IMG/VR virus record: IMGVR_UViG_3300037245_001077
Span: 96,001 to 160,000 of that record
Length of the DNA: 64,000 nucleotides
Direction: 5' to 3' (one strand)
From: a virus
Positions 43,394-57,062 of this stretch are shown piece by piece. A program made the position numbers and the translations under genes. The notes below the pieces were generated by a model, which saw only the letters and a program-made list of their open reading frames with translations, was not told where the DNA came from and did not search any database. The number at the start of each line of letters is the position of its first letter. Position 1 is the stretch's first letter.

Positions 43394-46066
43394 ATGACCC
43401 CGGATCTTGACCAAAACCTATCGTTAAAAGCGAGTATGCTCGATAAAGTTACCCCGGTTCTTAACAAGATCCAGAAGGGGGTAAAGCAAACTCGTGAAGC
43501 CTTCTCTGAAATGGTGTCCAACACCAAACAAACAGGCGAGGGAGTAGGGCAAGCTACAGGTGATATGGAGACGAAGGTCGTCCAAGACCTAAGCAAGATT
43601 CAAGACGGGCTAAAGACTACCTCTGGCGCATTCGAAGACTTCTCAGGCACAGCCACGTCAAGCTCTGGCAAAGTTGGTAAGGCCATCAAAGATGCTGCCT
43701 ATACCAAGGGAGCTGAAGACCGCTTAAGCGATTTGGACAAAGACCTCGGGAAACTGGACAAGACCTTCAAAGGTATGGCTTCCAGACAGGGATCTATCAG
43801 TGGTAAAGCTCGATCTCTGGCGGCTACAAGCTCGGATAACATCAACAAGAAAGTCATCCCGGCGTTCCAAGAACTTCATGGTACCTTGGACGATTACCCA
43901 GACGTACTAGAGGACATCAACCGACTAGAACAAGACCGGATGCGAATTCTAGAGGATAACCAAGGCGCGTTTTCTAGAATGGCGGGCCGTGTTTCTGAAG
44001 CAGGTGAAGGTCTTAAAGCGGCAAGCGAAGAGTTGAAGTATGGTTTGCGAGACATGGCTGCATTGGTTAATGCAGGCATCTTAGGTACTACGGGTACTCG
44101 TGTTCAAGAAATGCAAACAGGTGCGGCACAAATTGCTGGAGCAGAAGCTTTTGCACAAACGCCTGAAATGCTTAAACGGGCAACGGAAGTAGCTCATACA
44201 ACTATGGAGGTTATTGAACCTTTTGCTATGACTATGCTAGAACTGCAATCAGTTTCTGCTGACACAATGCCTGATCTTATCGCTCAATTCGTAAATCTTT
44301 CAAAAGTAACTGGTGACTCTGGTGATGAGATTGTAGCTCTTCATGACCAACTTACTAATTTAGCTGGGATCAAGGGGGAAGGTTTCCTTGATATCCAAGA
44401 TAATATGAAGTACTTCCAAGAGACTTCCCGTGCTACTTGGGATGATATGTCGGCTGTTATCCAGGGAGCCTCTTCTTCTATGCTGGCTTTCTCTGAGGAT
44501 TCACGAAGAGCATATGCTAAATCTGCTTTAGCCGCTGGTGCTGCTGCAAAGAACATGGGGTTGGCTGCCACTACTCCAGCTCAAGTTATTGAAACTCTAT
44601 TGGATGACCCCAACGCCATGTCTAAGATGCAGGGCCTCATCACCAACTCAGGCCAAAACATAGATATCCAAGCACTTATCGCAGACCCGGAAAAACAAGC
44701 TGAAGCTTTTGACGCTATGATTATTGCCATCAAGAGTCAGTTCGGTGAAATGAACATGATGAACGCCGTTGAGCGTAAAGCTGTTATGGCAATGACGGCT
44801 GGTCTTGGTTTTAACAAAGATGAGCTTCTACGTGTCTTTGAAGGCAAACGGATGACAGGAGAGGGTGAGGGTGGTACTGCTGCTGAAATGGCAGCACAGG
44901 CTGTTGAAGAAGCTCCTGGGACCATTATGGAGAGCGCCGTTGTGATCCGAAAGACTGTAACAGAACAGTTTGAACAAACAATGGGTCTTATGCAGAGTGG
45001 TTTGATTGAACCAGGACGTAAATTAGCTGAGGGTGTAGCAAATGCGGCGGAGATTTTTAACGAAAAAGTATTATCTTCAGCACTTGTACTAGAACGTGTA
45101 CTTGATGCCGAAGCAAGGGCAAGAGGATTACCTACTCCTTCTACTATTTTAGCCGTAGCAGGTATGGAAGAAGTACTAGCGACGGGGATGAAATCTCTTG
45201 GAAAAGCGGGTGCAGCTACAGGAATGGTCCCTGAGGGCATCACAGATATGATGCAGGGATCTGGGTGGGTTGACAAATTGATTATAGGGATTGGTGGTGC
45301 TATTGTTGGCCACAAGCTTATAGCCGGAGAGGGTCTTGAGGGACCAAAATTCTTTGAAACTCCACGTGAAACCATGGAAAACGTAATTTCTAGCCCAGAA
45401 GCAATGGCTAAAGCACAAGGGGCTATTACTGCTTCTGGGCAGAGTGTAGATCTTCAAGCTCTTATTCGTGAGGGTCATGATGCTGAAGCCTTTGCTGCTA
45501 TAACCGCAGCTATAAAAGAACAGTTTGGTGGACTTAACCCACAAGATGCAGTCCAACGTAAAGCCATGAAGGAGATGGGGATACTTCCAGAGAGAGGGGC
45601 AGGGCTAGGGCTAACCTCAGAAGAGCAGATGAAAATATTTGAGGGGGCTAAACCTTCAAAGACAGCACGGGTAATGTCGATGACACCTTTAGCTCCTTTA
45701 GCTCAAGCGGGAAAAACTCTTGGTGCTGTTCCAGATCTTGTAGGTAAAAAAGTAGAATTGCATATGCAAGTATTTAATGCCTTGAAAGAAGGTATCGGAG
45801 AAATCCACGGCATGTATTCAGCCTATCAAGATTTACTTGATACATTTAAAACGTACAAAGAAGACATGAGTAATCTTTCCGAAATTGAAATCAAGGACAA
45901 GCAAGGAGAGAAACGGGCAGAGATCCAAGAACGAATGTTGGCTGAGTTGAAAATTATCGCGGAACAACTTAAACCTTCTGCCCAAGGGACATCTGTTAAA
46001 TCTGCTTACACTCCGGGGGTAGATCGTTCCCGAGAGTATATGGAACTAGACAAAGGATATAGCTAA
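43394..46066 (+). CDS. tape measure protein
   Basis: Long Ala/Gly/Met-rich helical ORF directly after the chaperones; LSLKASMLDKVTPVLNKI N-terminus. Confidence 0.85.
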   Translation: MTPDLDQNLSLKASMLDKVTPVLNKIQKGVKQTREAFSEMVSNTKQTGEGVGQATGDMETKVVQDLSKIQDGLKTTSGAFEDFSGTATSSSGKVGKAIKDAAYTKGAEDRLSDLDKDLGKLDKTFKGMASRQGSISGKARSLAATSSDNINKKVIPAFQELHGTLDDYPDVLEDINRLEQDRMRILEDNQGAFSRMAGRVSEAGEGLKAASEELKYGLRDMAALVNAGILGTTGTRVQEMQTGAAQIAGAEAFAQTPEMLKRATEVAHTTMEVIEPFAMTMLELQSVSADTMPDLIAQFVNLSKVTGDSGDEIVALHDQLTNLAGIKGEGFLDIQDNMKYFQETSRATWDDMSAVIQGASSSMLAFSEDSRRAYAKSALAAGAAAKNMGLAATTPAQVIETLLDDPNAMSKMQGLITNSGQNIDIQALIADPEKQAEAFDAMIIAIKSQFGEMNMMNAVERKAVMAMTAGLGFNKDELLRVFEGKRMTGEGEGGTAAEMAAQAVEEAPGTIMESAVVIRKTVTEQFEQTMGLMQSGLIEPGRKLAEGVANAAEIFNEKVLSSALVLERVLDAEARARGLPTPSTILAVAGMEEVLATGMKSLGKAGAATGMVPEGITDMMQGSGWVDKLIIGIGGAIVGHKLIAGEGLEGPKFFETPRETMENVISSPEAMAKAQGAITASGQSVDLQALIREGHDAEAFAAITAAIKEQFGGLNPQDAVQRKAMKEMGILPERGAGLGLTSEEQMKIFEGAKPSKTARVMSMTPLAPLAQAGKTLGAVPDLVGKKVELHMQVFNALKEGIGEIHGMYSAYQDLLDTFKTYKEDMSNLSEIEIKDKQGEKRAEIQERMLAELKIIAEQLKPSAQGTSVKSAYTPGVDRSREYMELDKGYS

Positions 46067-46674
46067 TGTCTGATTACACAGGTGGACAAAGTGCCGCACG
46101 AGTACTTTCACCAGAAGCTTTTTGTTTTATTTTAGACACGGATAGTGGGGAGCGGGTAGAGTTCCAGCTCATGCCTGAGTCCATTTCAGAGAGTAAATCT
46201 GCGATGTACAATGAGGTGCCTATCATTGGTCGTAGCCTTCCTTTACTGGGATACGCTAACTCAAGCGCACGGACAATGGGGATAGGGTTGAGCTTCGCAG
46301 CTCTATTCGCTGAGGGTAAGTACTCTCCATCTTGGGTTGAGGAACAGGTTCGTTGGCTAGAGTCTAAGGTGTACCCCATTTATGAAGATGGATATGTGTT
46401 CCCCCCACCACGTCTTCTAGTAGTAGTGGGTAAAGCTATTGGGCTACAGTGTATTATGAATTCAGTAAACACTACTTGGCTTGGCCCTTGGTCTGTGGCA
46501 AACCAGGATGCGTATGCTTTTCGTGCTCAAGTAGATATCCAGTTCCAAGAGTATGGGATGAATGAAGACGCAGCCGGTCACCCCTTTGACGCTGATGATG
46601 CTAAAGAAGGTAAGAACCAGAGTTTTGAGCGTGGTGGTGGAACATTCTACGTAGATATCCCGACAGGAGTGTAA
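46066..46674 (+). CDS. tube initiator / baseplate tail-tube protein
   Basis: FQLMPESISESKSAMYNEVPIIGRSLP and YP....PPPRLLV motifs. Confidence 0.75.
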   Translation: MSDYTGGQSAARVLSPEAFCFILDTDSGERVEFQLMPESISESKSAMYNEVPIIGRSLPLLGYANSSARTMGIGLSFAALFAEGKYSPSWVEEQVRWLESKVYPIYEDGYVFPPPRLLVVVGKAIGLQCIMNSVNTTWLGPWSVANQDAYAFRAQVDIQFQEYGMNEDAAGHPFDADDAKEGKNQSFERGGGTFYVDIPTGV

Positions 46675-46675
46675 G

Positions 46676-47035
46676 ATGCCAATCGTTAAAACGCTGTTAG
46701 AGCCTCTACGCCATGGACAGCTCCCTAGAGGGGCACAGAGCATACCTAGACGTTACTACAAGTCCTGGGGCTACCAGGACGACGAGAAGAGGTACTTCAT
46801 GGGTACCTTCCCTCCTCCGGCTATAGTCCCTCACCAGAGTGACAGACTATACGTGGTGGAGGCTGGAGACATTCCACGACCAGACTTGATCAGTTACAAG
46901 CTTCTTAAAGACCCGGCCTATTTCTGGGTTATTTTGTGGTTAAACGGGATTTCTGATCCGTTTGAGGGGATCTATCCAGGTATGACTCTACGTGTTCCTA
47001 CGTCGCGCAGATTAGCTGAATTCGGTATCAAATAG
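46676..47035 (+). CDS. LysM-like baseplate wedge protein (gp53 / gpX-like)
   Basis: RPDLISYKLLKDPAYFWVILWLNGISDPFEGIYPGMTLRVP. Confidence 0.85.
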   Translation: MPIVKTLLEPLRHGQLPRGAQSIPRRYYKSWGYQDDEKRYFMGTFPPPAIVPHQSDRLYVVEAGDIPRPDLISYKLLKDPAYFWVILWLNGISDPFEGIYPGMTLRVPTSRRLAEFGIK

Positions 47036-47043
47036 GGGGACAA

Positions 47044-48624
47044 GTGGCTATTGATCGTCCCCCTATGTGGCAGACCTCCACGCCTTTCCTTGAGTTCTAT
47101 GTTAACGGCGTGGATATCCTGCGTTCTTCTGACGGTAAACCTCGCACCCTAATCTCTTTCACTCACAACAACATATTGAATGGTAACGGTAGTTGGACGT
47201 TGGAAGTATTTGACCCTAGCTACGTGGCGATTGAAGAGCTACTCTTCGTTACCGCAGGAGAAGGAGGGTCACTTGATACAGCAAAAGAGAGTTATGGTGA
47301 AGCCAAATCAAATCAGGACACCAAATTTATGTTGACTCATCCCGCGATATTTCGATATGGTTACGTGTCCAAAGATGGGAAAGAGATTGCTATCCCTTCT
47401 GTAGGAGGAGAGTTCTTCGTTGGATCGATCACTGGGTATGTACCTACCTTCCAAACTAACGGTACTCACCTACTAATTGAAGGACAAGTACTTGGTTCCA
47501 CCCAACTGAAAAATAGACGGATCAACACCGCTTACTACGACAAAGATATCGCTACGATTATCGAAGATGTGTGTCGTCGGATGGAGTGGACACTGGTCCC
47601 TCTAGGAGAACCACCCGGTACAGAAGAACTACCAGAAGGTAAACGCCCTGAGCCTCTGTTGGTACCTACAGTAAATATCGAAACCACAGAAGAGCAGCCT
47701 GTAACCTATCGCACCCAAGAAAATGAAGATGCCTATAAGTTCATCGTGCGTCTACTGAACAAGGCTCGTCCAAAGGATGGCAAGCTCGGTCCATATATGT
47801 GTAGACTAGAGTATCGAGCTTCAGGGATAGACGGATCTGCGACAACTACAGACATTGAACCCAAAGGTTATCTCTATTATGGCCCTACGGACGCTATGCT
47901 GGCCCCTGTACGCAATTACGTGTACATGCGTGACCCCCACTCGGACGTAATCTCCTTTTCACCCTCAGTGGCCGTAGCAACGGCACGCGCCTCTATTGGG
48001 GGTAGCTTGATTGCTAAGTCAGATGATAAGCGACTAGGTGAGCAGGTAGCGCATGAGTATACCGAGGTAGATCGGTACGTAAAGTACTTCAGTGAACGCA
48101 GAGGTAGGCTATCTTACCCTCTAGCAGAGATGGGTACGTTTCAAGAAGGTGAACCTGAGAGTCCTGAAAAGATAAACCAGATGGAAATGGCGAATACTAG
48201 TTCTAACGCTTTTGCAACAGGGAAGAAGTTCAGTACGGAAGAACCAGGGAATGAAATGTCTGTCCATGTGACAGACCGTTACCTGTCTGATCGACAAACA
48301 ATGGACTTTTTTCTCCGGGCTAATCTGTTTGTCAACTCTGCTTCGTTAGAAATCCATGGTGATCCTTCTCCAGAGCTTATGCCCCAACATAATGTGGCTG
48401 TGTATCTCTTTATCCCTACGCCTGAAGATGAGTTACGCATTCATTGGATTTCTAGTGTTTGGTTAATCATGGGAGCGATACACAATATCAGTATGGGAGC
48501 GTACACTACTACTCTTCAGCTTACTAAAACAGCCACACAACAAAGCGGGGTCACGTCTAGGGCAGCGTACAACTCCCTTATCGAAACGATGGATGCTGGT
48601 GCTATGAAGAGATTAGGGGGCTAG
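47044..48624 (+). CDS. baseplate hub protein (gp27 / gpD-like)
   Basis: Position; FRYGY, VISFSP and ASLEIHGDP...W.I....HNISMGAYTTTLQL motifs. Confidence 0.75.
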   Translation: MAIDRPPMWQTSTPFLEFYVNGVDILRSSDGKPRTLISFTHNNILNGNGSWTLEVFDPSYVAIEELLFVTAGEGGSLDTAKESYGEAKSNQDTKFMLTHPAIFRYGYVSKDGKEIAIPSVGGEFFVGSITGYVPTFQTNGTHLLIEGQVLGSTQLKNRRINTAYYDKDIATIIEDVCRRMEWTLVPLGEPPGTEELPEGKRPEPLLVPTVNIETTEEQPVTYRTQENEDAYKFIVRLLNKARPKDGKLGPYMCRLEYRASGIDGSATTTDIEPKGYLYYGPTDAMLAPVRNYVYMRDPHSDVISFSPSVAVATARASIGGSLIAKSDDKRLGEQVAHEYTEVDRYVKYFSERRGRLSYPLAEMGTFQEGEPESPEKINQMEMANTSSNAFATGKKFSTEEPGNEMSVHVTDRYLSDRQTMDFFLRANLFVNSASLEIHGDPSPELMPQHNVAVYLFIPTPEDELRIHWISSVWLIMGAIHNISMGAYTTTLQLTKTATQQSGVTSRAAYNSLIETMDAGAMKRLGG

Positions 48625-48625
48625 T

Positions 48626-49948
48626 GTGCCTAGGCGTAGAAGCTTATTTGAAGATGATCTAAACCCGTTTAAGACGGTTACTGATTGGAAGTTTGGTCGA
48701 GGTGCGCATCTTCGTGGAAACAATATCATTGTTCGGGGAAGAGTAGAGTACAACCGTGACCCTGATCATCGAGGGAGAGTCATGGTCCGTGTTTTAGAAG
48801 ACGGGCCAGAGATGCAGATCAGTAACCCACAGCTCCCTCGTGTAGCTACCTTTGATCTTGGTTGGTGTGACCCAATGTTCACCCACAGCTCAGGTATGGG
48901 CTTTGGGTCTTTCTCTGTTCCTATCGTTGGAGCCAGAGTTTTCGTTATGTATGAACGTGGGGCTGAAGAGAACCCTGTCTATTTTGGGGGGTGGTTCGCT
49001 AACACTCCTCGTAAGCGTAGATATGGAGCTACCAAATCTACACTTAAACCTCCAATTGTAGAGTTTGAAGATGATCCTGGGTACAATGAAGAGGGTGAGG
49101 TTGGAGCTGGAGGGAAGTATCAGTACCCACCTAAGCCCCCTCCTTACCATGGGAACTGGCAAGAAGAGCAAGGGCCTGAGTTACCCCTAGAATTGTCAGA
49201 GATGCTTGACCATACACCGGACACTCATCTATTTTTCAAGACTCTTAAAGGGGCTTCATTAATAGTCAAAGAGCGGGATGAGGTCGAGGAGTTGTCCCTG
49301 ATTGACCACATGGGGGCGGGTCTCCATATTAGCTCACACACCTTACTTTCAGAGGAAGGTGTTACGCGGAGAGGGCGCGTTTCAGCATGGGAACATGAAC
49401 CTATAACGCTGGATAACCTATCCAATGAAAGTCACACTTTACTCTTAACGACTGCTACAAAAGCTGGGTTAGAAATAGAAGCTAGTATCTATGGTTATGA
49501 CTCACTTAGCCTACAAATTCACCCAGAGCAAGACATTAAGAAGAACATAGAAGTAATGCCCACACGAGTAGCTGTGGAGCTAGATGAAGGTGAACAACGA
49601 GTACGTATTTTGTACATGGAGCAGGGGGAAGAGGTTGGTTCTATTACCTTTGATGCTGCGGGTAGGAAGTTAGACATACAGGGGATTGAGCGTACTCGTA
49701 TTTTTGCTAGCGAAGATATCGTATTGCTTTCTCCTAAGATACGTGTTCTTGGGGACTTAGATGTTGAAGGAGAAATTCGACACATGGGGGGCAAGAAATT
49801 TACTTTCTTGGACAACGATATGGAGCCTTACGGTTCTCAAACACGAAACTATTGGCCGTTTAGAGAGAGCACTAATCCGTATCCGTATCACGACTCAAAG
49901 TATGATCGGAAAGCGGCGACTAAATCTAATGAACGTAGGTGGTGGTAA
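48626..49948 (+). CDS. baseplate spike protein (gp5/VgrG OB-fold)
   Basis: GRVEYNRDPDHRGRVMVRV and VPIVGARVFVMYERGAEENPVYFGG. Confidence 0.88.
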   Translation: MPRRRSLFEDDLNPFKTVTDWKFGRGAHLRGNNIIVRGRVEYNRDPDHRGRVMVRVLEDGPEMQISNPQLPRVATFDLGWCDPMFTHSSGMGFGSFSVPIVGARVFVMYERGAEENPVYFGGWFANTPRKRRYGATKSTLKPPIVEFEDDPGYNEEGEVGAGGKYQYPPKPPPYHGNWQEEQGPELPLELSEMLDHTPDTHLFFKTLKGASLIVKERDEVEELSLIDHMGAGLHISSHTLLSEEGVTRRGRVSAWEHEPITLDNLSNESHTLLLTTATKAGLEIEASIYGYDSLSLQIHPEQDIKKNIEVMPTRVAVELDEGEQRVRILYMEQGEEVGSITFDAAGRKLDIQGIERTRIFASEDIVLLSPKIRVLGDLDVEGEIRHMGGKKFTFLDNDMEPYGSQTRNYWPFRESTNPYPYHDSKYDRKAATKSNERRWW

Positions 49949-52900
49949 TGGCTACTAAACACGACAGAGCTAAGGGTGATATCCGAGATTTGTACGCCTA
50001 CTATCGATTTACAGATCATGAGATGACTAATATCACGGTGAAGGATACTTCCTTAACAAAGGAAGAGGTGTGGTTTGAAGGGCATATGAGTTGGGCTTTT
50101 ATAAAATGTACCTTCACTAAGCCTTTCCATTATGGAGTTGAGGGGGCACATCTGTCAGAGGATATGCGGGGTACCGTGGAAAATGAAGAACCCTTTCCTC
50201 CGTATGGGTCTAATGGGTTGAACTTCACTGATTGTACGATGACAGCCCCCTTTGAAATTAAGGATAATTGTGTGGCTGTGTTTGTGCGTTGTACCTTTAC
50301 GGAAAGTATAACTATTGAGGACAACTCTAAGGTAGAATTCATAGAATGTACCTTCACTAAAGGTCTTAATTTCAAACTTTTTTGTGAGGCAAAGTTTACT
50401 CGTTGCGATTTACTTCAACAAGATTTTTGTATTGATGCTGCTGATCATTGTAACTTCCATTTTAATAACTGTACCCACGGAAACCCAGCAGATAAAGCTG
50501 CTTTTGGTTTTGATAATGACTGTACGGCTGTTTTTCATAGTGAGGATAAAATTAGTTTGAGTGCTATCAAAGAAGTATTCAAACTTAATAATGCTTGTGT
50601 TGTTAAGGTGTACAACTACGGAGCTATTAAGTCTGTAGATCTTCCTATGGCCAGTGTAACGGATAACTCTAAAATTGAAATTTACAAGACCGCCCATTTG
50701 TCTAGTGATGGGTCTGACATCTTTAAAGTTGTTGACAGTGAAATGTACATGAAAGAAGTAGAGTACTGTGGTTGTCCTATAGGACGCCCTATTTACGCTG
50801 AAAATAGTCTTGTTCGTAGCATAGATGTAGACCTCATAAAAGGAGAAAAAGGCATAGCTATTGAGGCTATTGACTCTGAAGTCAATATTGTGAACACTCC
50901 AATTATCCAAAGTGATTTGAGCATAGCCATTTATGCTTTAAACAGTAAGCTAGCTTTCTCTGATATCACAGAAAAAATATTCTCAGGATTACAAACAGCC
51001 ATTTATGTAGATGGTACTACAGAGATGCTCGTGCGTCGTTGCCCCCTAATTGAGTCAGGGCAAAGAGTGGCTATCTATATTGACAACGGAGCTTGGTTAA
51101 ACTGTAACGATGTGGATGTTGTTCTAAGTGGAGCATCTACAGCAATCAAAGTACTTAATGGTGGTAGATGGACAGACAAAACAGGTACTCGTAGAGAAGG
51201 AATTGAGTACGGTCTTGATGCTACTGACGCTACAATCGAAATTGATACTGTAGGTAGATATGTAAGTGCCGATTTTGTAGGTATCCAACTTGTTAACTGT
51301 GGCTATGACCTTCGTAATATAGCCTTAATTGAAGGACTGCTTGGGGGGTTACACACTACAAATGGGCAGGGGGTTGTGTTTAACTTAGGAGATCTTCTTG
51401 GTACTGAGGGTCCAGGTGTCCTTATTAACGGAGCTTCTGGCCCAACAGAATGGGATACGATCTCTTTGATTGAATCTTCAATAGAAACAGCTTGGGTAGT
51501 CTCAGGAGATCTTTATGGATTGCGAGCGGCAAAGATTGGAATGATTAGATCTGAGCAAAACCATGCTATTGATTGGAATCAAAGTGGTGGAGATGTTTTT
51601 TTGTATGACATTAACACTATTGAATCTCTACAAGAATCGGCTGTTATATGCACAGTAAATGGGCGTCTTCGCTTTGAGAAAGTCAACTCTATAACCTCAG
51701 AAGAAAAAGAAGCTATGTTTGTTACGGTTGATGGGGGAGAAGCTTTCTTCAATGATATCGTGACTATCGAAGCTCCTATGAAGACAGCTCTTACTATAGC
51801 TGTGAATAGTGGTGAGGCTCACTTCAACGAGGTACAGCATGTTATCTCAGAACAAGAGACTGCTATAGCTTTAACTGTAGCTGAAGGGGCTACTCTTCGT
51901 TATAATGAGTTCAATGATATTACCTCTGAGATGGGTACAGCTATAGAAGGAACTGTATCTGGTGAGCTTATTGTAACTAACGGTGTCATCATTGAAAGTC
52001 AGATGGCAAGCGGTATACTTTTAGATGGAGAAGGGGCCACGTATTCTTTCATTCGGTTTGCAGACATTGGTTCTGTTAAATCAGCTCAACTAGATGATCA
52101 CTTAGTTGGGATTACTTCTTGTTCTTATATCCAACTGCACAAAATTCCTAGCTTTGAAATGGGCACAGGTGGTGCTTCTAGTTACATTGTTTATCTTCGA
52201 GGGAATGGGGGTAATTTTGGACGCTGTGAAGTAATTGACTGCCCAAGTCTTACTGCTGTTGTAGGACGTGGTGGTTTGTATCTCCGAAACTTTTTTGACT
52301 TTGATGTTGTGTGCTCCAGAGAAAAAGGGAAAATAACTATAGAGACATCTGAGGGGGGATATGTATTTGGTGTGATCGGGTGTAATGGCCGTATTGCTAA
52401 TTTTAGTGAGATTGTAGATAACTCCAACAAGGCGGCAAAAGGAATTATAATTTACGGGTTACTCGGTGGTGCTCCAGGTAATGTACAGATTTGGAATGTA
52501 GACACTATTCAGGCGAAAGAAACAGCAATAGATATTGCTACTTACGGTCACGTTCAGATGTTTAATGTTGGTGAAATTAAAACTCCTGAAGGCTTCCCTG
52601 CAATGAGAGTTAGTGATGGGCAGGTTACAATACAGGGGGGAAGTTCTCATACTAAACTTAGTGCGAAAGAACCTACGTCTGAGGTTTTTCAGATCATAGG
52701 TACAAGTAGAGTTGATTTCATCAAAGTAGAGACAGAAGTGAATAAGGGTATAACGTTTATTAACAACGCAAAAAATTGTTTTTTCTACGATTGTATTCTT
52801 AATGGAACGGTTAAAACATCCAACTCTTCTGTAGAGTTCTTTGACACAGAAACTACTAGTGGTTATGACATTAGCAGTAGTGCGATAAAGTGGTTCAATA

Positions 52901-54003
52901 GTACAATAAAAGTTGGCCAGAATGATGGGACAACAAAAAAGTTTGAGGCTAATGGTTCTTCTCTTCAGTTCATGACAACTACTATAGAGGGGTCAGAAGA
53001 CATTATTATCTCTGACTCTGATGTTTTAATGCAGCATACAAACGGGGGGTCTTTCAGTGGTAAGTTAGAGCTTACTGGTAGTGGTTCTGTCTTCTTGGGT
53101 ACTACTTTCTCAGGGGCTAGTGAAGCTTCTTTCGACAGCGCAACAGGTGTTCTTCTTGCCTCTTGTGACCTCCCAGATGTTAAAGCTAATGGTGGTGTAG
53201 CTGCTTTTTGTAGCACTTTAAAGAGCGTAGACGTAGGAAATTCTGCTGCTTTCTTAAGCTTGAAAGATACTATTAGTGGTTCTTTAACCCTACAAAGTGG
53301 CGCAGGTGCTATTTTAAATAGCTCTAGTGTTACAGGTTCTCTTACAAGTCAAGGAAGTGCTGGTATTATCTTAAACAGCTCTGATGTTTCAGGATCGCTT
53401 TCTCTTGGTAGTGGAGATGGTCTTATAGCTAATAGATTTTCTACTGGTACTTTAGCTACTAGTAGTAACAATGGTTGTATACTTAGTGCTGTAGATTTTT
53501 CTTCCCTTACAATTGACACAACTAGTGGTGTTGTTGGAGCTAAATTAGCTGGAGGAGCGGATATAAGTGGATCATTAGTAGTAGCAGAGGGGCCGGTAAG
53601 TACCTCTTGGGCTGTAAGTGGATCGCTTGTTAGCGCGGGATTAGGTATTGCAAACACGACTAGTTCTGGGGCAGCAGTTATGGCTGGTGGTGGTGCGGCT
53701 GGATCAGGAGCGGCAGTTATGGTTTTTGGTGCTGCTTATACTCAGAATCCACCAAGTGGTATGGCAAATCCTAGAAGTGGTATTCGGGTTTACACTAATG
53801 TTGTACATTTATGGGATGAGTATGGTAGCACAGAAGGAGGAGGGAGTGGAACTTCTATGATGTTAGGGGTGGGTGCTGGTCCTTGGGTAGGGGAAGGATA
53901 TCACCTTGATACTAAGAGTCAAGTGCGTAGTGCAGCAACCAGTATATACGATATCGCTCCTGTTATTCACCACAACTTAGGTGAAGGGTTCATCATAGAC
54001 TAA
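49948..54003 (+). CDS. giant beta-solenoid protein (spike extension candidate)
   Basis: TAATG coupling; regular 19- and 24-aa beta rungs; C-terminal IYDIAPVIHHN. Confidence 0.7.
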   Translation: MATKHDRAKGDIRDLYAYYRFTDHEMTNITVKDTSLTKEEVWFEGHMSWAFIKCTFTKPFHYGVEGAHLSEDMRGTVENEEPFPPYGSNGLNFTDCTMTAPFEIKDNCVAVFVRCTFTESITIEDNSKVEFIECTFTKGLNFKLFCEAKFTRCDLLQQDFCIDAADHCNFHFNNCTHGNPADKAAFGFDNDCTAVFHSEDKISLSAIKEVFKLNNACVVKVYNYGAIKSVDLPMASVTDNSKIEIYKTAHLSSDGSDIFKVVDSEMYMKEVEYCGCPIGRPIYAENSLVRSIDVDLIKGEKGIAIEAIDSEVNIVNTPIIQSDLSIAIYALNSKLAFSDITEKIFSGLQTAIYVDGTTEMLVRRCPLIESGQRVAIYIDNGAWLNCNDVDVVLSGASTAIKVLNGGRWTDKTGTRREGIEYGLDATDATIEIDTVGRYVSADFVGIQLVNCGYDLRNIALIEGLLGGLHTTNGQGVVFNLGDLLGTEGPGVLINGASGPTEWDTISLIESSIETAWVVSGDLYGLRAAKIGMIRSEQNHAIDWNQSGGDVFLYDINTIESLQESAVICTVNGRLRFEKVNSITSEEKEAMFVTVDGGEAFFNDIVTIEAPMKTALTIAVNSGEAHFNEVQHVISEQETAIALTVAEGATLRYNEFNDITSEMGTAIEGTVSGELIVTNGVIIESQMASGILLDGEGATYSFIRFADIGSVKSAQLDDHLVGITSCSYIQLHKIPSFEMGTGGASSYIVYLRGNGGNFGRCEVIDCPSLTAVVGRGGLYLRNFFDFDVVCSREKGKITIETSEGGYVFGVIGCNGRIANFSEIVDNSNKAAKGIIIYGLLGGAPGNVQIWNVDTIQAKETAIDIATYGHVQMFNVGEIKTPEGFPAMRVSDGQVTIQGGSSHTKLSAKEPTSEVFQIIGTSRVDFIKVETEVNKGITFINNAKNCFFYDCILNGTVKTSNSSVEFFDTETTSGYDISSSAIKWFNSTIKVGQNDGTTKKFEANGSSLQFMTTTIEGSEDIIISDSDVLMQHTNGGSFSGKLELTGSGSVFLGTTFSGASEASFDSATGVLLASCDLPDVKANGGVAAFCSTLKSVDVGNSAAFLSLKDTISGSLTLQSGAGAILNSSSVTGSLTSQGSAGIILNSSDVSGSLSLGSGDGLIANRFSTGTLATSSNNGCILSAVDFSSLTIDTTSGVVGAKLAGGADISGSLVVAEGPVSTSWAVSGSLVSAGLGIANTTSSGAAVMAGGGAAGSGAAVMVFGAAYTQNPPSGMANPRSGIRVYTNVVHLWDEYGSTEGGGSGTSMMLGVGAGPWVGEGYHLDTKSQVRSAATSIYDIAPVIHHNLGEGFIID

Positions 54004-54012
54004 GGAGTTAGT

Positions 54013-54327
54013 ATGAGTTGTGAATTTGTTACTTATATTGCGGTTCTTGGTAATGTTACTAACCAAGATGACCATATTGTTGATGTGGGTTCGTACCAGG
54101 CGTCTACTTTCTCTAAAGGAATATTAATAGCTGTACATGGTTCTGATACAGATACTCCAGCAAATTTAATTGAAATTCCTGTGGCTACTACTTTTATTGA
54201 AGGTATTCCTATGTCTCATATTCTTACCCAAGTAGATGATGACCCAGATAATCATTGGGTAGCTGAGGGGGATGAGGTAGTAGAGCCTACAGATATGGTA
54301 ACACTTGTAGCGTTTGACTGTGGTTAA
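54013..54327 (+). CDS. degenerate PAAR-like spike tip protein
   Basis: IAVLG..T...IVDVGS..STFSKGILIAVHGS...TTFIEGIPMSH follows the three-fold PAAR pattern. Confidence 0.55.
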   Translation: MSCEFVTYIAVLGNVTNQDDHIVDVGSYQASTFSKGILIAVHGSDTDTPANLIEIPVATTFIEGIPMSHILTQVDDDPDNHWVAEGDEVVEPTDMVTLVAFDCG

Positions 54328-54332
54328 GGATA

Positions 54333-55001
54333 ATGATGTATACGTACCAAATGCAGTACCCGAACATGAATACCCCGAAGTACACACCTCGGGGTGTTCG
54401 GCCCGGTATGTTGAGCAAACTCAATGAGATCCAAATAGATGTTTCAGAATTGAAACCTGTTCCAGTTGATATCCCACAAGTGGCAATTGCTATATGGTTA
54501 TCCGCCTGGATAAACGCAATTAATAAGCTTAATAGGGAATTGATGGGGGCTTTTATGGGAGAGACACCGAGTGTCTTCACCCATTCGTGTAACGTCCGAA
54601 GATACACCTCCATCTATGAAGTAGTTACTTACCTCAACACGATAGCCTACCCCTATGGTTGGAGTTACCACCTTAGTCGAGTAGCCACGTGGGAAGATGT
54701 GAAGCTCGCTTTGCTGGAGGGCTTTACCGTGATGGCAGGGGGAACTGTCTATTCTAGCTTCGATAAAGCGGTACATACAGGCGTCGTTCCTATGCCTAAG
54801 CCCGAAGAGGATTTATTGGGTGGGCAGATTGTGAATATCGTTGGTTTCAATCAAGAAACAGACATGGCACTAGCGATAGGAAATATGGGAATGGATGTAG
54901 GTAAGCAGGGGATGTTCCAATATCGAGGGTCACATCTTCGTAACTTAGGGATCTTCCGCGACTACTTCCTCCTTACTTCGAGGTATACTGATGCTAGTTA
55001 G
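54333..55001 (+). CDS. papain (C1A)-fold protein lacking catalytic residues
   Basis: VYSSF..TGVVPMPKPEEDLLGGQIVNIVGF...GNMG...GKQGMF aligns to the C1A GGHAV..VGY..NSWG..WG..GYF region. Confidence 0.65.
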   Translation: MMYTYQMQYPNMNTPKYTPRGVRPGMLSKLNEIQIDVSELKPVPVDIPQVAIAIWLSAWINAINKLNRELMGAFMGETPSVFTHSCNVRRYTSIYEVVTYLNTIAYPYGWSYHLSRVATWEDVKLALLEGFTVMAGGTVYSSFDKAVHTGVVPMPKPEEDLLGGQIVNIVGFNQETDMALAIGNMGMDVGKQGMFQYRGSHLRNLGIFRDYFLLTSRYTDAS

Positions 55002-55521
55002 TGATGAAGAACAACTTATCGTAAAAAACACGGTTGCTACCAACCTATTGGAGGTAGTAGGCCAAGGGATTGATTTCCCCCTGACGTTTACTCATTCAGC
55101 TCAAGTAGGGACAGTACAACAGTCTAACGCAGGAGAACGAATCAAGGATTCTATTCACCTCATTCTGGCTACTCGGATTGGGGAACGGCTTATGAATCCT
55201 GAGTTCGGGAGCCGGTTGTATCAGTTAGTGTTTGAACCTAATGATACAGTTTTGCAACGTCTACTGGTTTTCTACACCGCAGAGGCAATCCAACGGTGGG
55301 AGAAACGAGTGGAAATCGTTAAGGTTACAATTTTAGATAACCTTGAAGACCAGAGTACCGTGGGTATTCATATTTTATACAACATCCGTAACTCACACAT
55401 CCAAGGTAGTTATGTGTACCCCTTCGTGCGCGAGGGGATGCTTACTGGAGACCAGTATACGGGTGTAGAGGCAGAACAAATGTTGCATCCTGGTAGCGTG
55501 AGAGGATTAAGTCAGAGGTAA
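54991..55521 (+). CDS. baseplate wedge protein (gp25 / gpW-like)
   Basis: IKDSIHLILATRIGERLMNPEFGSRL..LVFEP and AIQRWEKRV. Confidence 0.92.
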   Translation: MLVSDEEQLIVKNTVATNLLEVVGQGIDFPLTFTHSAQVGTVQQSNAGERIKDSIHLILATRIGERLMNPEFGSRLYQLVFEPNDTVLQRLLVFYTAEAIQRWEKRVEIVKVTILDNLEDQSTVGIHILYNIRNSHIQGSYVYPFVREGMLTGDQYTGVEAEQMLHPGSVRGLSQR

Positions 55522-55523
55522 AT

Positions 55524-57062
55524 ATGGCAACCAAATACAAAGCAGACTACTTCCTTAAGGACTACGATACTATCCGCACGGAGATGATCGCTAGGCTTCC
55601 TATCCTTTCAGATGGCAAGCTAACTGATCTCAATGAGTCTTCAATTTCCGTTACCTTGGTAGAAGTTTTTGCGGCTATTGGGGACATGCTGGGTTTTTAC
55701 TTAGATGCGAATGCGCTTGAAGCGTTCCTCCCCACTGTTCGCCAGCCAGAGAACGTTTATCGTTTGACCAAGCTTATTGGATATCGTATCCGTGAGATGA
55801 CCTCGGCTCAAGCAGATGTACGCTTCACACTCGGGACTACGTTTTCTGAAGAGGTGTTTATCCCTAAGGGTACTCAACTCGGTACAGCTACCGGAGGTGG
55901 AGCGGGAGAGATTGGGCTGTTCCTCACAACTGAAAACACTACCATCCCTATTGGGGATTCAGTTAGTGAACTGGTTGGTGCTGTCCAGGGTTCCTCTTTC
56001 ACCGAGTCTTTTACTGGAGACGGAACTGCGGGTCAGTTTATCGTTCTTAGTGTACAAGAAATTGATCTTTCTACAATGGAGATCTATACCGGAAATATCA
56101 AGTGGTCTCAGGAAGAGACCTTCTTGTACAGTGAGCGTGATGATTTCGTGTATGTCATACAAACAGATCACCTTGGTGTAGTTCGCGTTTACTTTGGTGA
56201 TGGTAAGTATGGGCGTGTCCCATCTGTCGGTGAAACAATCACTGTGAACTACCTCCGCTCTGCGGGAGCACAAGGAAACGTTGGCGCTGATGCTATTGGT
56301 CTTGTGTTCTCAGATATCCGAACAGTCACTACTAATTCTAAAGTGACCAACATCTCGGTTACAAATCCCGAGTCAGCAGCCGGAGGAAGTGATCGTCAGT
56401 CCTTGGAGCAGGTGAAAACTAACGCTCCTGGTTCCCTGGCTGCGCTGTACCGGCCTTTAACCAAGTATGACTACAACGCTTTGATTGCACGACTAGGAGG
56501 CGTACAGCACGTGAATGTGTGGGGAGAACAAGAAGAAGAACCCCCATCATATGAGAATATGAACTGGGCTAACGTCTGCCTCGTACCTACTGGAGGAGGA
56601 TTACCCTCTGAAAACCTCCGTTCTATCGTGAAAGACTACCTGTTAGAGTGGCAGCCTATTACTGTGCGTATCCGTTTTATTGACCCCATGTACATCAGGC
56701 TTCAGGTGTCAATGAATGTGTACGTATTGCCAGGGTACTCACAAGAAGATGTTCGTATTAAAATCACGGATGATATCCGTGAGTTCTTTGACCTAGAGAA
56801 CGTAAGGTTCGGACAGGACATCCGTGCTTCTGTTTTCTATAAGATGGCCATGTCGTATGAAGAAGTAAACCACTGTGTGGTAAACAACTTCATTCAAGTG
56901 GCAGATGATGAAGTTGAAACAGATATCGGGCAAGAAGCTATCCTTCAAAAGTGGCACATTCCCGTGCTAGATGAGCTTACAGTTCTCTTACATGAGGCTG
57001 TGGAACTCCCAGTTCCTGACCTCTACCCCGATGAAGAAATTGAACCCCCTTGGAACGTATAG
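55524..57062 (+). CDS. baseplate wedge protein (gp6 / baseplate J-like)
   Basis: KDYDTIR, EAFLPT, LIGY, VYFGDGKYGRVP, GAQGNVGA and AAGGSDRQS motifs. Confidence 0.9.
   Translation: MATKYKADYFLKDYDTIRTEMIARLPILSDGKLTDLNESSISVTLVEVFAAIGDMLGFYLDANALEAFLPTVRQPENVYRLTKLIGYRIREMTSAQADVRFTLGTTFSEEVFIPKGTQLGTATGGGAGEIGLFLTTENTTIPIGDSVSELVGAVQGSSFTESFTGDGTAGQFIVLSVQEIDLSTMEIYTGNIKWSQEETFLYSERDDFVYVIQTDHLGVVRVYFGDGKYGRVPSVGETITVNYLRSAGAQGNVGADAIGLVFSDIRTVTTNSKVTNISVTNPESAAGGSDRQSLEQVKTNAPGSLAALYRPLTKYDYNALIARLGGVQHVNVWGEQEEEPPSYENMNWANVCLVPTGGGLPSENLRSIVKDYLLEWQPITVRIRFIDPMYIRLQVSMNVYVLPGYSQEDVRIKITDDIREFFDLENVRFGQDIRASVFYKMAMSYEEVNHCVVNNFIQVADDEVETDIGQEAILQKWHIPVLDELTVLLHEAVELPVPDLYPDEEIEPPWNV

Follow-up and report, generated by a model that had tools for sequence, protein, structure and literature searches.

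What stands at the end of the central spike of a contractile phage tail when the spike gene is followed by a gene for a 1351-residue protein rather than by a recognizable tip gene? The question is raised by a stretch of 64,000 nucleotides (the window), which comprises bases 96001-160000 of the 176.5-kb IMG/VR virus record IMGVR_UViG_3300037245_001077 (estimated completeness 81%). Within the window, a gp5-type spike gene (48626-49948) and a giant open reading frame (ORF; 49948-54003) adjoin each other in a baseplate operon of tightly packed genes on the + strand. The phage is uncultured and T4-like, with a Gp23-type capsid protein and a sheath. One sequencing run, a marine-sediment metagenome that may itself be the source of the record, contains the region in full; among the runs listed, no RNA sequencing run contains it.

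The spike tip determines the manner in which contractile tails, and the injection machines related to them, make first contact with the cell envelope and break through it; with few exceptions, the tips described so far are either small cones of the PAAR type or apex domains of the fused kind. The lineage to which this phage belongs, an uncultured T4-like lineage of marine sediment, seems as a whole to be without PAAR and always to pair its spike gene with a gene for a rod of 1200-2000 residues. The reading favoured here, to which a probability of roughly one half is given, is that the giant protein is a spike-mounted, very long β-helical appendage of the central spike; its attachment to gp5, its copy number (one or three), its axial position, and its function are what we infer under that reading. 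A rod on the spike would add to the tip architectures known so far, would point to hosts whose outer layers are thick, and would provide a confidently modelled, modular scaffold for study. As a peripheral tailspike, by contrast, it would be a receptor-binding protein of the ordinary kind, if an unusually long one.

Predicted fold of the giant protein

The giant protein (143 kDa, pI 4.6) contains 28 Cys residues. Because all of its homologues begin with "MA" at the ATG at position 49948, the product is taken to be the 1351-aa protein and not the 1354-aa version that would begin at a GTG. Relative to shuffled sequences, a period of 19 aa is present at residues 41-200 (z 4.7-4.9), a period of 23-24 aa at residues 241-440 (z 2.0-3.2), a period of 25 aa at residues 521-680 (z 6.4-8.7), and again a period of 19 aa at residues 1041-1200 (z 4.2-5.1); beyond residue 1200 no sequence period is significant by the same comparison. 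The Cys residues of the F..C.F. rungs (C96, C115, C134, and C153) are spaced exactly 19 residues apart. Eleven of the 28 Cys residues fall within the first rungs (residues 54-192; window positions 49948-50523) and are mostly invariant in the family; they make up an internal Cys ladder, which may serve in stacking, in disulfides, or in metal binding.

Monomeric models were made with AlphaFold2 (AF2) for residues 1-1200, with a 15-sequence alignment, and for residues 1101-1351. The first has a mean predicted local distance difference test score (pLDDT) of 90.1 and consists of one helix at residues 12-20 followed by uninterrupted β-strands from ~89 to 1200; pLDDT is below 50 at residues 1-12, 17-40, and 64-88. 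The strand spacing tracks the sequence periods, with ~19-20 residues at first, 23-25 in the middle, and 18-19 from ~1080 onward. In the second model the helix continues to ~1260-1290 with spacings of 19, 19, 18, 18, 15, 17, 16, and 13 residues as confidence drops from ~90 to ~60; the last ~45 residues are unmodelled, and the last spacings come from regions of moderate or low confidence. Thus, the very long β-solenoid with changing rung length that had been described in an initial annotation of the window is borne out by the model and by the periods. The rung lengths of 19, 24, and 19 aa given there coincide with significant periodicity, and the ~17 and then 12 aa given for the end find their counterpart only in the last, less confident spacings of the model. 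Tapering of the rungs is therefore supported by the models, with a certainty that decreases toward the C-terminus. Parallel β-helices usually rise 4.8 Å per rung; with ~55-60 rungs, the rod would be ~28 nm long, widest at mid-length and narrower at both ends.

The models predict that the giant protein is a single-chain, right-handed parallel β-helix. In an exhaustive search with VIA-align, the model is matched by proteins of this fold with Z values of 20-29 over 283-416 aligned residues (root-mean-square deviation 3.2-5.0), among them Vag8 (28.8), pertactin (25.5), AlgE4 (23.8), and NosD (23.0). The best structural matches are adhesins (Vag8, 7akv; pertactin, 2iou/1dab; TibA; Ag43; EtpA; and Fap2, for which 964 residues are aligned), which are also long single-chain rods; the passengers of TibA and Ag43 align to the C-terminal stretch of 19-aa rungs (residues 926-1200). 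Unlike these adhesins, the giant protein is encoded in a phage structural operon and has no signal peptide, and Pfam finds neither an autotransporter β-barrel translocator nor a TPS domain in it; its C-terminus consists of a narrowing helix and a short His motif, and the resemblance is one of fold only. Phage tailspikes belong to the same fold class (Det7/Dettilon gp208, 6f7k; CBA120 TSP2, 6w4q; AS12 gp42, 6eu4; cyanophage Pam1, 7eea; and P22 gp9), the first four with Z values of 21.7-22.4. Like the giant protein, they combine an N-terminal anchor that is conserved with a distal part that varies. However, the giant protein is two to three times longer than these tailspikes, its helix is almost uninterrupted, its gene lies in the hub-spike block, and it is without sequence similarity to them and without a recognized anchor or catalytic residues.

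Other searches are less informative. The giant ORF has no sequence match in Pfam, PHROGs, PDB, or GenBank phages (tblastn and megablast), and Pfam finds no Gp5_C family match; in Pfam and PHROG searches no catalytic family and no known tailspike anchor domain is found, and no signal peptide is present. Foldseek returns nothing from PDB at E <= 1e-3 (weak solenoid matches only) and, from BFVD, only generic solenoids of giant viruses and poxviruses together with weak tailspike matches. The ESM Atlas, which holds no model of the protein, offers weak "right-handed beta-helix" leads at 0.81.

The needle of gp5 and VgrG is of another kind, an intertwined β-helix of three chains with 8-residue repeats. 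The possibility that the giant protein is a split-off gp5 needle was rejected: the predicted solenoid is formed by a single chain, has rungs of 18-25 aa, is modelled at pLDDT 90, and has single-chain β-helices as its structural neighbours. The monomer model called for in the initial annotation thus yields the long solenoid, but not a three-chain needle of the gp5 type.

The gp5-type gene and its pairing with the giant gene

The 440-aa product of the gene at 48626-49948 is identified as a central spike protein of the gp5/gpV/VgrG type by a match to PF04717, the OB domain, which covers residues 36-124 (28.9 bits, Pfam cut-off 23.8) and by a match to phrog_430, "baseplate hub subunit and tail lysozyme". 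Against PDB, the family profile finds the OB domain of T4 gp5 (1pdl/1k28, E 0.006) and VgrG (7q5p). There are 39 homologues with 44-90% identity, and PF04717 is present in all of those listed except a few fragments. The OB domain is followed by a β-helix-like region, for which the profile search gives only a weak alignment to the helix region of VgrG 7q5p, and by a Pro/aromatic-rich C-terminal tail; there is no lysozyme domain. Because all three parts are present and the size matches that of gp5 in the cultured phages SP-15 and LIS04 (424 aa in SP-15, where gp5 pairs directly with a PAAR protein), the gene appears to be complete on its own rather than truncated. The "split spike" of the initial annotation, in which the giant ORF was the detached remainder of the needle, has to be given up, since gp5 is full-sized and the solenoid is of the single-chain, tailspike/autotransporter class.

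Two smaller statements of that annotation stand. Its remark that the gp5-like ORF lacks a tip motif agrees with the absence of a conserved HxH near the C-terminus among 20 family members; this motif forms the Fe site of apex-type spikes such as P2 gpV and phi92 gp138. According to Mattenberger et al. (2025, PMC12407873), a spike that has no HxH at its C-terminus should bear its tip as a separate protein. The TAATG coupling is also as described, with the TAA stop of gp5 (49946-49948) and the ATG of the giant gene (49948-49950) sharing the A at 49948.

The pairing is kept in all relatives that can be read. Synteny was counted over the window and the related loci L002/L006, L004, L005, L007, L015, L016, L019, and L023, with the homologues P0008, P0010, P0011, and P0014-P0016 left out. 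Every readable locus shows one and the same gene order, namely the hub-position protein, a member of the gp5 family, the giant gene, (the small gene), the papain-like gene of ~220 aa, gp25, and gp6, and the giant gene lies directly 3' of the gp5 family gene in 9/9 lineages, the window included, with stop and start overlapping or abutting. In L019 (8980-10356) the gp5 homologue reads as two ORFs (306 + 120 aa) instead of one of ~425 aa; the gene may be broken or frameshifted, or the sequence may contain an error. The next gene of L019, the giant gene (1344 aa), is intact.

Metagenomes contain 13 homologues of the giant protein, all unannotated and 1295-2055 aa long; with the readable loci included, the family spans 1225-2055 aa. 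A metagenome scan gave three loci only. Neither the giant protein nor gp5 has a relative in 185,579 prokaryote genomes, and therefore no clue to the host is available from this source. Among relatives, the giant protein is less conserved (27-87% identity) than the gp5 family (44-90%), and conservation is unevenly distributed along it. The first 120 aa (49948-50307), a proposed anchor or interface, are 54-59% identical to the most distant clade, compared with 13-35% elsewhere, and contain many invariant residues; the C-terminal third is the least conserved part. Residues 61-88 form an invariant-rich loop within the segment, 1-88, that AF2 leaves unfolded. Because these conserved residues are the part that AF2 cannot fold in isolation, they suggest a partner-dependent interface. 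No second copy of this N-terminal anchor is present in the phage record. Farther along, two conserved patches comprise residues 481-560 and 761-800. Relative to the close relative L007, identity is ~88% over residues 1-230, ~40% over 230-700, ~78% over 700-900, and weak beyond 960. Such mosaicism, together with variable length and a GC content lower than that of the flanks, is typical of host-contact proteins.

The variable last ~40 residues of gp5, which are of a …NERRWW or a …DEDPDRW type, covary by clade with an extension at the N-terminus of the giant protein (a short MATK… or MAD…YGQQQ…). This covariation is compatible with contact between the two proteins but is confounded by phylogeny.

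Three known systems frame the pairing. The T4 spike (gp27, gp5, and the PAAR protein gp5.4; 1k28, 4ku0) is encoded in the same kind of hub-spike-(tip)-gp25/gp6 block, with a small gene before the wedge genes. In T4, however, no 143-kDa β-helix directly follows gp5, whose counterpart here has no lysozyme domain, and the small protein encoded here fails the PAAR tests described below and tracks the C-terminus of the giant protein rather than gp5. The closest cultured relatives of the gp5 protein, at 26-28% identity over the OB half, are those of the Thornevirus phages SP-15 (Bacillus) and LIS04 (Listeria), which share with the window the order tape measure, tube initiator, LysM, baseplate protein, gp5, X, gp25, gp6; X is a 234-aa PAAR protein (PF05488) in SP-15 and LIS04, and here it is the giant gene, an optional gene of 104 codons, and a papain-like gene of 222 codons. 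Phage RB43 provides a precedent. It has a larger, non-PAAR tip, probably the ~690-aa orf205w product encoded right after gene 5, and cryo-electron microscopy density suggests that this protein is located at the spike tip (PMC12407873). As in RB43, a large gene occupies the slot right after gene 5 and no gp5.4 or PAAR gene is found, in this case by a PF05488 search of four related phage records that are 45-81% complete. Unlike the giant protein (1225-2055 aa, all-β), the RB43 protein is mainly α-helical (PMC12407873), and tblastn gives no match of the giant protein to GenBank phages.

The histidine-containing end and the small downstream gene

The giant protein ends in a His motif, as initially annotated: APVIHHN occupies residues 1337-1343 (53956-53976), eight residues before the end, and IHHN(L/Y/F) closes 9/14 members of the giant family and also the giant protein of L004. 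The motif contains the only HH of the protein, HxH is absent, and AF2 confidence over it is below 50. The non-IHHN proteins of L005, L015, L016, and P0014 end in A-x-(T/V)-H-(S/V)-P, at most 7 residues from the end; thus, a single His is retained at the very C-terminus in almost every variant.

Downstream lies an ORF for a very acidic protein of 104 aa (54013-54327; pI 4.05) with its own AAGGAG ribosome-binding site. Among 1.8-5.8 billion proteins it has four relatives by exhaustive HMMER search and six by profile search, none of them annotated. The gene is present in the window clade, in the L002 clade, and in L004, in all of which the giant protein ends in IHHN. It is absent from L005 (end ...APTHSP), where it is missing from the whole 139-kb record; from L007 (...IDHNYT), a near relative in which a papain-like gene of ~220 codons, 92% identical, adjoins the giant gene; from L015 and L016 (...IVHVPPV); and from L019 (...NDYTF). 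Because the gene is thus found in every lineage whose giant protein ends in IHHN (3/3) and in none of the others (0/5; Fisher p 0.018), the 104-aa protein is proposed from this distribution to be a partner of the IHHN-type C-terminal module, as a cap, an adhesin, or an assembly chaperone; because close relatives do without it, it is not a general tip of the gp5 spike. Translational read-through from the giant gene into the small gene was rejected as a general mechanism: although the two genes are in the same frame in the window and in L002, they are in different frames in L004, and a ribosome-binding site precedes every one of the small genes.

Whereas the link between the small gene and the His-containing end holds, the PAAR-like character ascribed to the gene in the initial annotation does not find support. 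The protein has no match to PF05488 or DUF4280 at E values up to 10, and two of its relatives remain below the PF05488 threshold (19.5 and 13 bits, cut-off 27). By hhalign, the family has a probability of 8% against T4 gp5.4 and of 3% against the SP-15 PAAR protein; the short segments aligned are of the KGILIAVHGS type for gp5.4 and of the FIEGIPMSH type for the PAAR protein. The metal site of gp5.4 consists of three His and one Cys (PMC12407873). Among the five members of the 104-aa family, H69 is the sole invariant His and no Cys is conserved, so that such a site is not formed by conserved residues. Sequence and profile searches find nothing meaningful in PDB, NCBIfam, or PHROGs, and the structural models are poor (AF2 pLDDT 27-38; ESM Atlas pLDDT 0.35). 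PAAR tips are cones of three β-hairpins with three PAAR-type crossovers; the resemblance of the 104-aa protein to them is confined to the two motif-like segments. In an AF2 model of a fusion of the last 251 residues of the giant protein with the 104-aa protein (TAA read as Gly), both the 104-aa part and the last ~45 residues of the giant protein have pLDDT below 50. Homology of the 104-aa protein to PAAR is thus unproven.

Placement of the rod and the surrounding operon

A rod mounted on the spike is favoured because the synteny of the two genes is obligatory, the N-terminus of the giant protein is conserved and yet cannot be folded alone, gp5 lacks an HxH, no PF05488 protein is detected, and RB43 offers a precedent. 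In the most likely arrangement, the conserved N-terminal ~120 residues of the giant protein would dock onto the gp5-type spike, with the giant gene occupying the slot that belongs to PAAR in SP-15 and LIS04. Thus mounted, the rod would form a long probe in line with the tail axis, and its fast-evolving, mosaic distal half and C-terminus would be first to meet the host surface, where they may bind and possibly degrade a surface polymer. Contraction of the sheath would push the rod ahead of the spike, and the 104-aa protein would serve the IHHN-type C-terminal module as cap, adhesin, or chaperone. The rod may also have a part in the crossing of a thick envelope. A bolder form of the same arrangement starts from the perimeter of a single-chain rung (18-25 residues), which matches one turn of the gp5 prism (3 x 8): the rod might stack end-on on gp5 through its N-terminal ~90 residues and lengthen the puncturing device by 25-45 nm, with a highly diverged PAAR-like cap recognizing IHHN in some lineages. 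This would constitute a new class of spike tip, but the proposal is a tentative one and somewhat unlikely.

Several considerations weigh against a spike-mounted rod. We infer the placement on gp5 indirectly, from monomeric models and gene context. Gene order alone proves nothing, since T4 itself has the unrelated 5.1, segC, and 5.3 between genes 5 and 5.4. The tailspike-class fold and the gradient from conserved anchor to variable tip fit a peripheral tailspike equally well. A rod 2.5-3 nm across (or a trimer of ~6 nm) in front of the spike might hinder the piercing of membranes. The phage records are 45-81% complete, and a PAAR gene could lie elsewhere. Finally, Pfam and PHROG give no match to the giant protein, no catalytic or receptor-binding site is identified in it, and no active site is assigned to its conserved patches.

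An alternative view is that the giant protein, probably as a trimer, is attached by its N-terminus to the wedge or rim of the baseplate as a tailspike or side fibre, with a receptor-binding or depolymerase function, with its gene merely occupying the variable slot after gene 5, and with the 104-aa protein as its chaperone. Phage tailspikes and lyases or epimerases of polysaccharides are numerous among the structural neighbours (Z 18-24, over model residues ~500-965), and the exchange of mosaic segments behind a conserved N-terminus is typical of receptor-binding proteins. In addition, the small downstream gene covaries with the C-terminal module as tail-fibre chaperones do, and the genes between 5 and 5.4 in T4 show that an unrelated gene may stand at this place. 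However, the start/stop adjacency of gp5 and the giant gene persists in 9/9 lineages although the body of the giant gene recombines freely, other fibre-like genes (942 aa and at least 949 aa) are in the usual place past gp6, and no known tailspike anchor domain is detected by Pfam or PHROG. Such a placement would also leave the spike with neither an HxH apex nor a recognizable tip. It is the main rival, possible but on the whole improbable.

Still closer to the initial annotation would be a strict split spike, a three-fold, coaxial needle in which the giant protein continues the gp5 helix and the 104-aa protein, as a PAAR, caps the IHHN end through a His metal site. The co-occurrence of the IHHN end with the small gene (p 0.018), the two PAAR-motif-like segments and two sub-threshold PF05488 relatives of the small protein, and the failure of both ends of the giant protein to fold as a monomer, as expected if they trimerize, all agree with it. 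Yet the body of the giant protein is predicted to be a single-chain β-helix, unlike gp5; gp5 is full-sized compared with that of SP-15; the motif is HH instead of HxH; the PAAR tests fail or give no clear result, with one invariant His and no conserved Cys; and five related lineages carry the giant gene without the small gene. A needle of this kind is doubtful indeed. It is most improbable that the giant protein is no part of the virion but a soluble or secreted late β-helical enzyme or adhesin-like protein that acts, for example, in matrix degradation at release. Nothing specific favours such a role beyond a fold class that includes many secreted enzymes and adhesins; in each of the relatives the gene lies deep within the baseplate operon, stop and start overlapping, and the searches reveal neither a signal peptide nor a catalytic family, nor any internal promoter or terminator that would be convincing. 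A rod carried by the central spike is thus the reading that is preferred.

The remaining genes of the operon, all on the + strand, place the pair within a hub-spike block. Upstream lie a gene for an 890-aa protein (43394-46066), assigned to the tape measure by position only, since it has no family match, followed by a CIS_tube-like initiator (46066-46674) and a gp53/LysM-like gene (46676-47035), both from Pfam and PHROG searches. The next gene (47044-48624) encodes a conserved 526-aa baseplate protein without a significant family or PDB match, and its place as the hub (gp27/gpD) is likewise one of position only: its neighbours in each related locus are the gp53/LysM-like gene on one side and gp5 on the other, and its syntenic counterpart in SP-15 is the "baseplate protein". 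The block is closed by the wedge genes, gp25-like (54991-55521; PF04965 E 1e-18, phrog_43) and gp6/Baseplate_J-like (55524-57062; PF04865 E 5e-11, phrog_219).

Between the 104-aa gene and gp25 is the 222-aa papain-like ORF (54333-55001), which recurs in every related locus, always preceded by the giant (or small) gene and followed by gp25. In a search with its family profile, the match is to the C-terminal half of the papain-like cysteine protease 3ois (E 2.3e-7), and the family consensus has a Gln at the position of the catalytic His (GGQIV versus GGHAV). Judged from these alignments, the protein looks like an inactive protease fold that serves as a baseplate part. It was rejected as the real equivalent of PAAR; it has no similarity to the SP-15 PAAR protein, and its profile match is to a papain-like protease.

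Past gp6 come a 416-aa ORF and then a gpI-like protein of 942 aa. The segment 58322-63998 contains this Tail_P2_I protein, into which a LamG-like segment is inserted, and an open-ended DUF7592 ORF (at least 949 aa); both are more usual candidates for peripheral receptor-binding proteins. Scans for the T4-type late promoter TATAAATA and for σ70 promoters and terminators were uninformative, and the σ70/terminator scan gave no convincing internal promoter or terminator in the baseplate operon. Across the giant gene (50001-54000), GC content is 0.40-0.42, versus 0.45-0.48 in the flanks, and the GC skew of the window reaches its peak there, at 0.18-0.24.

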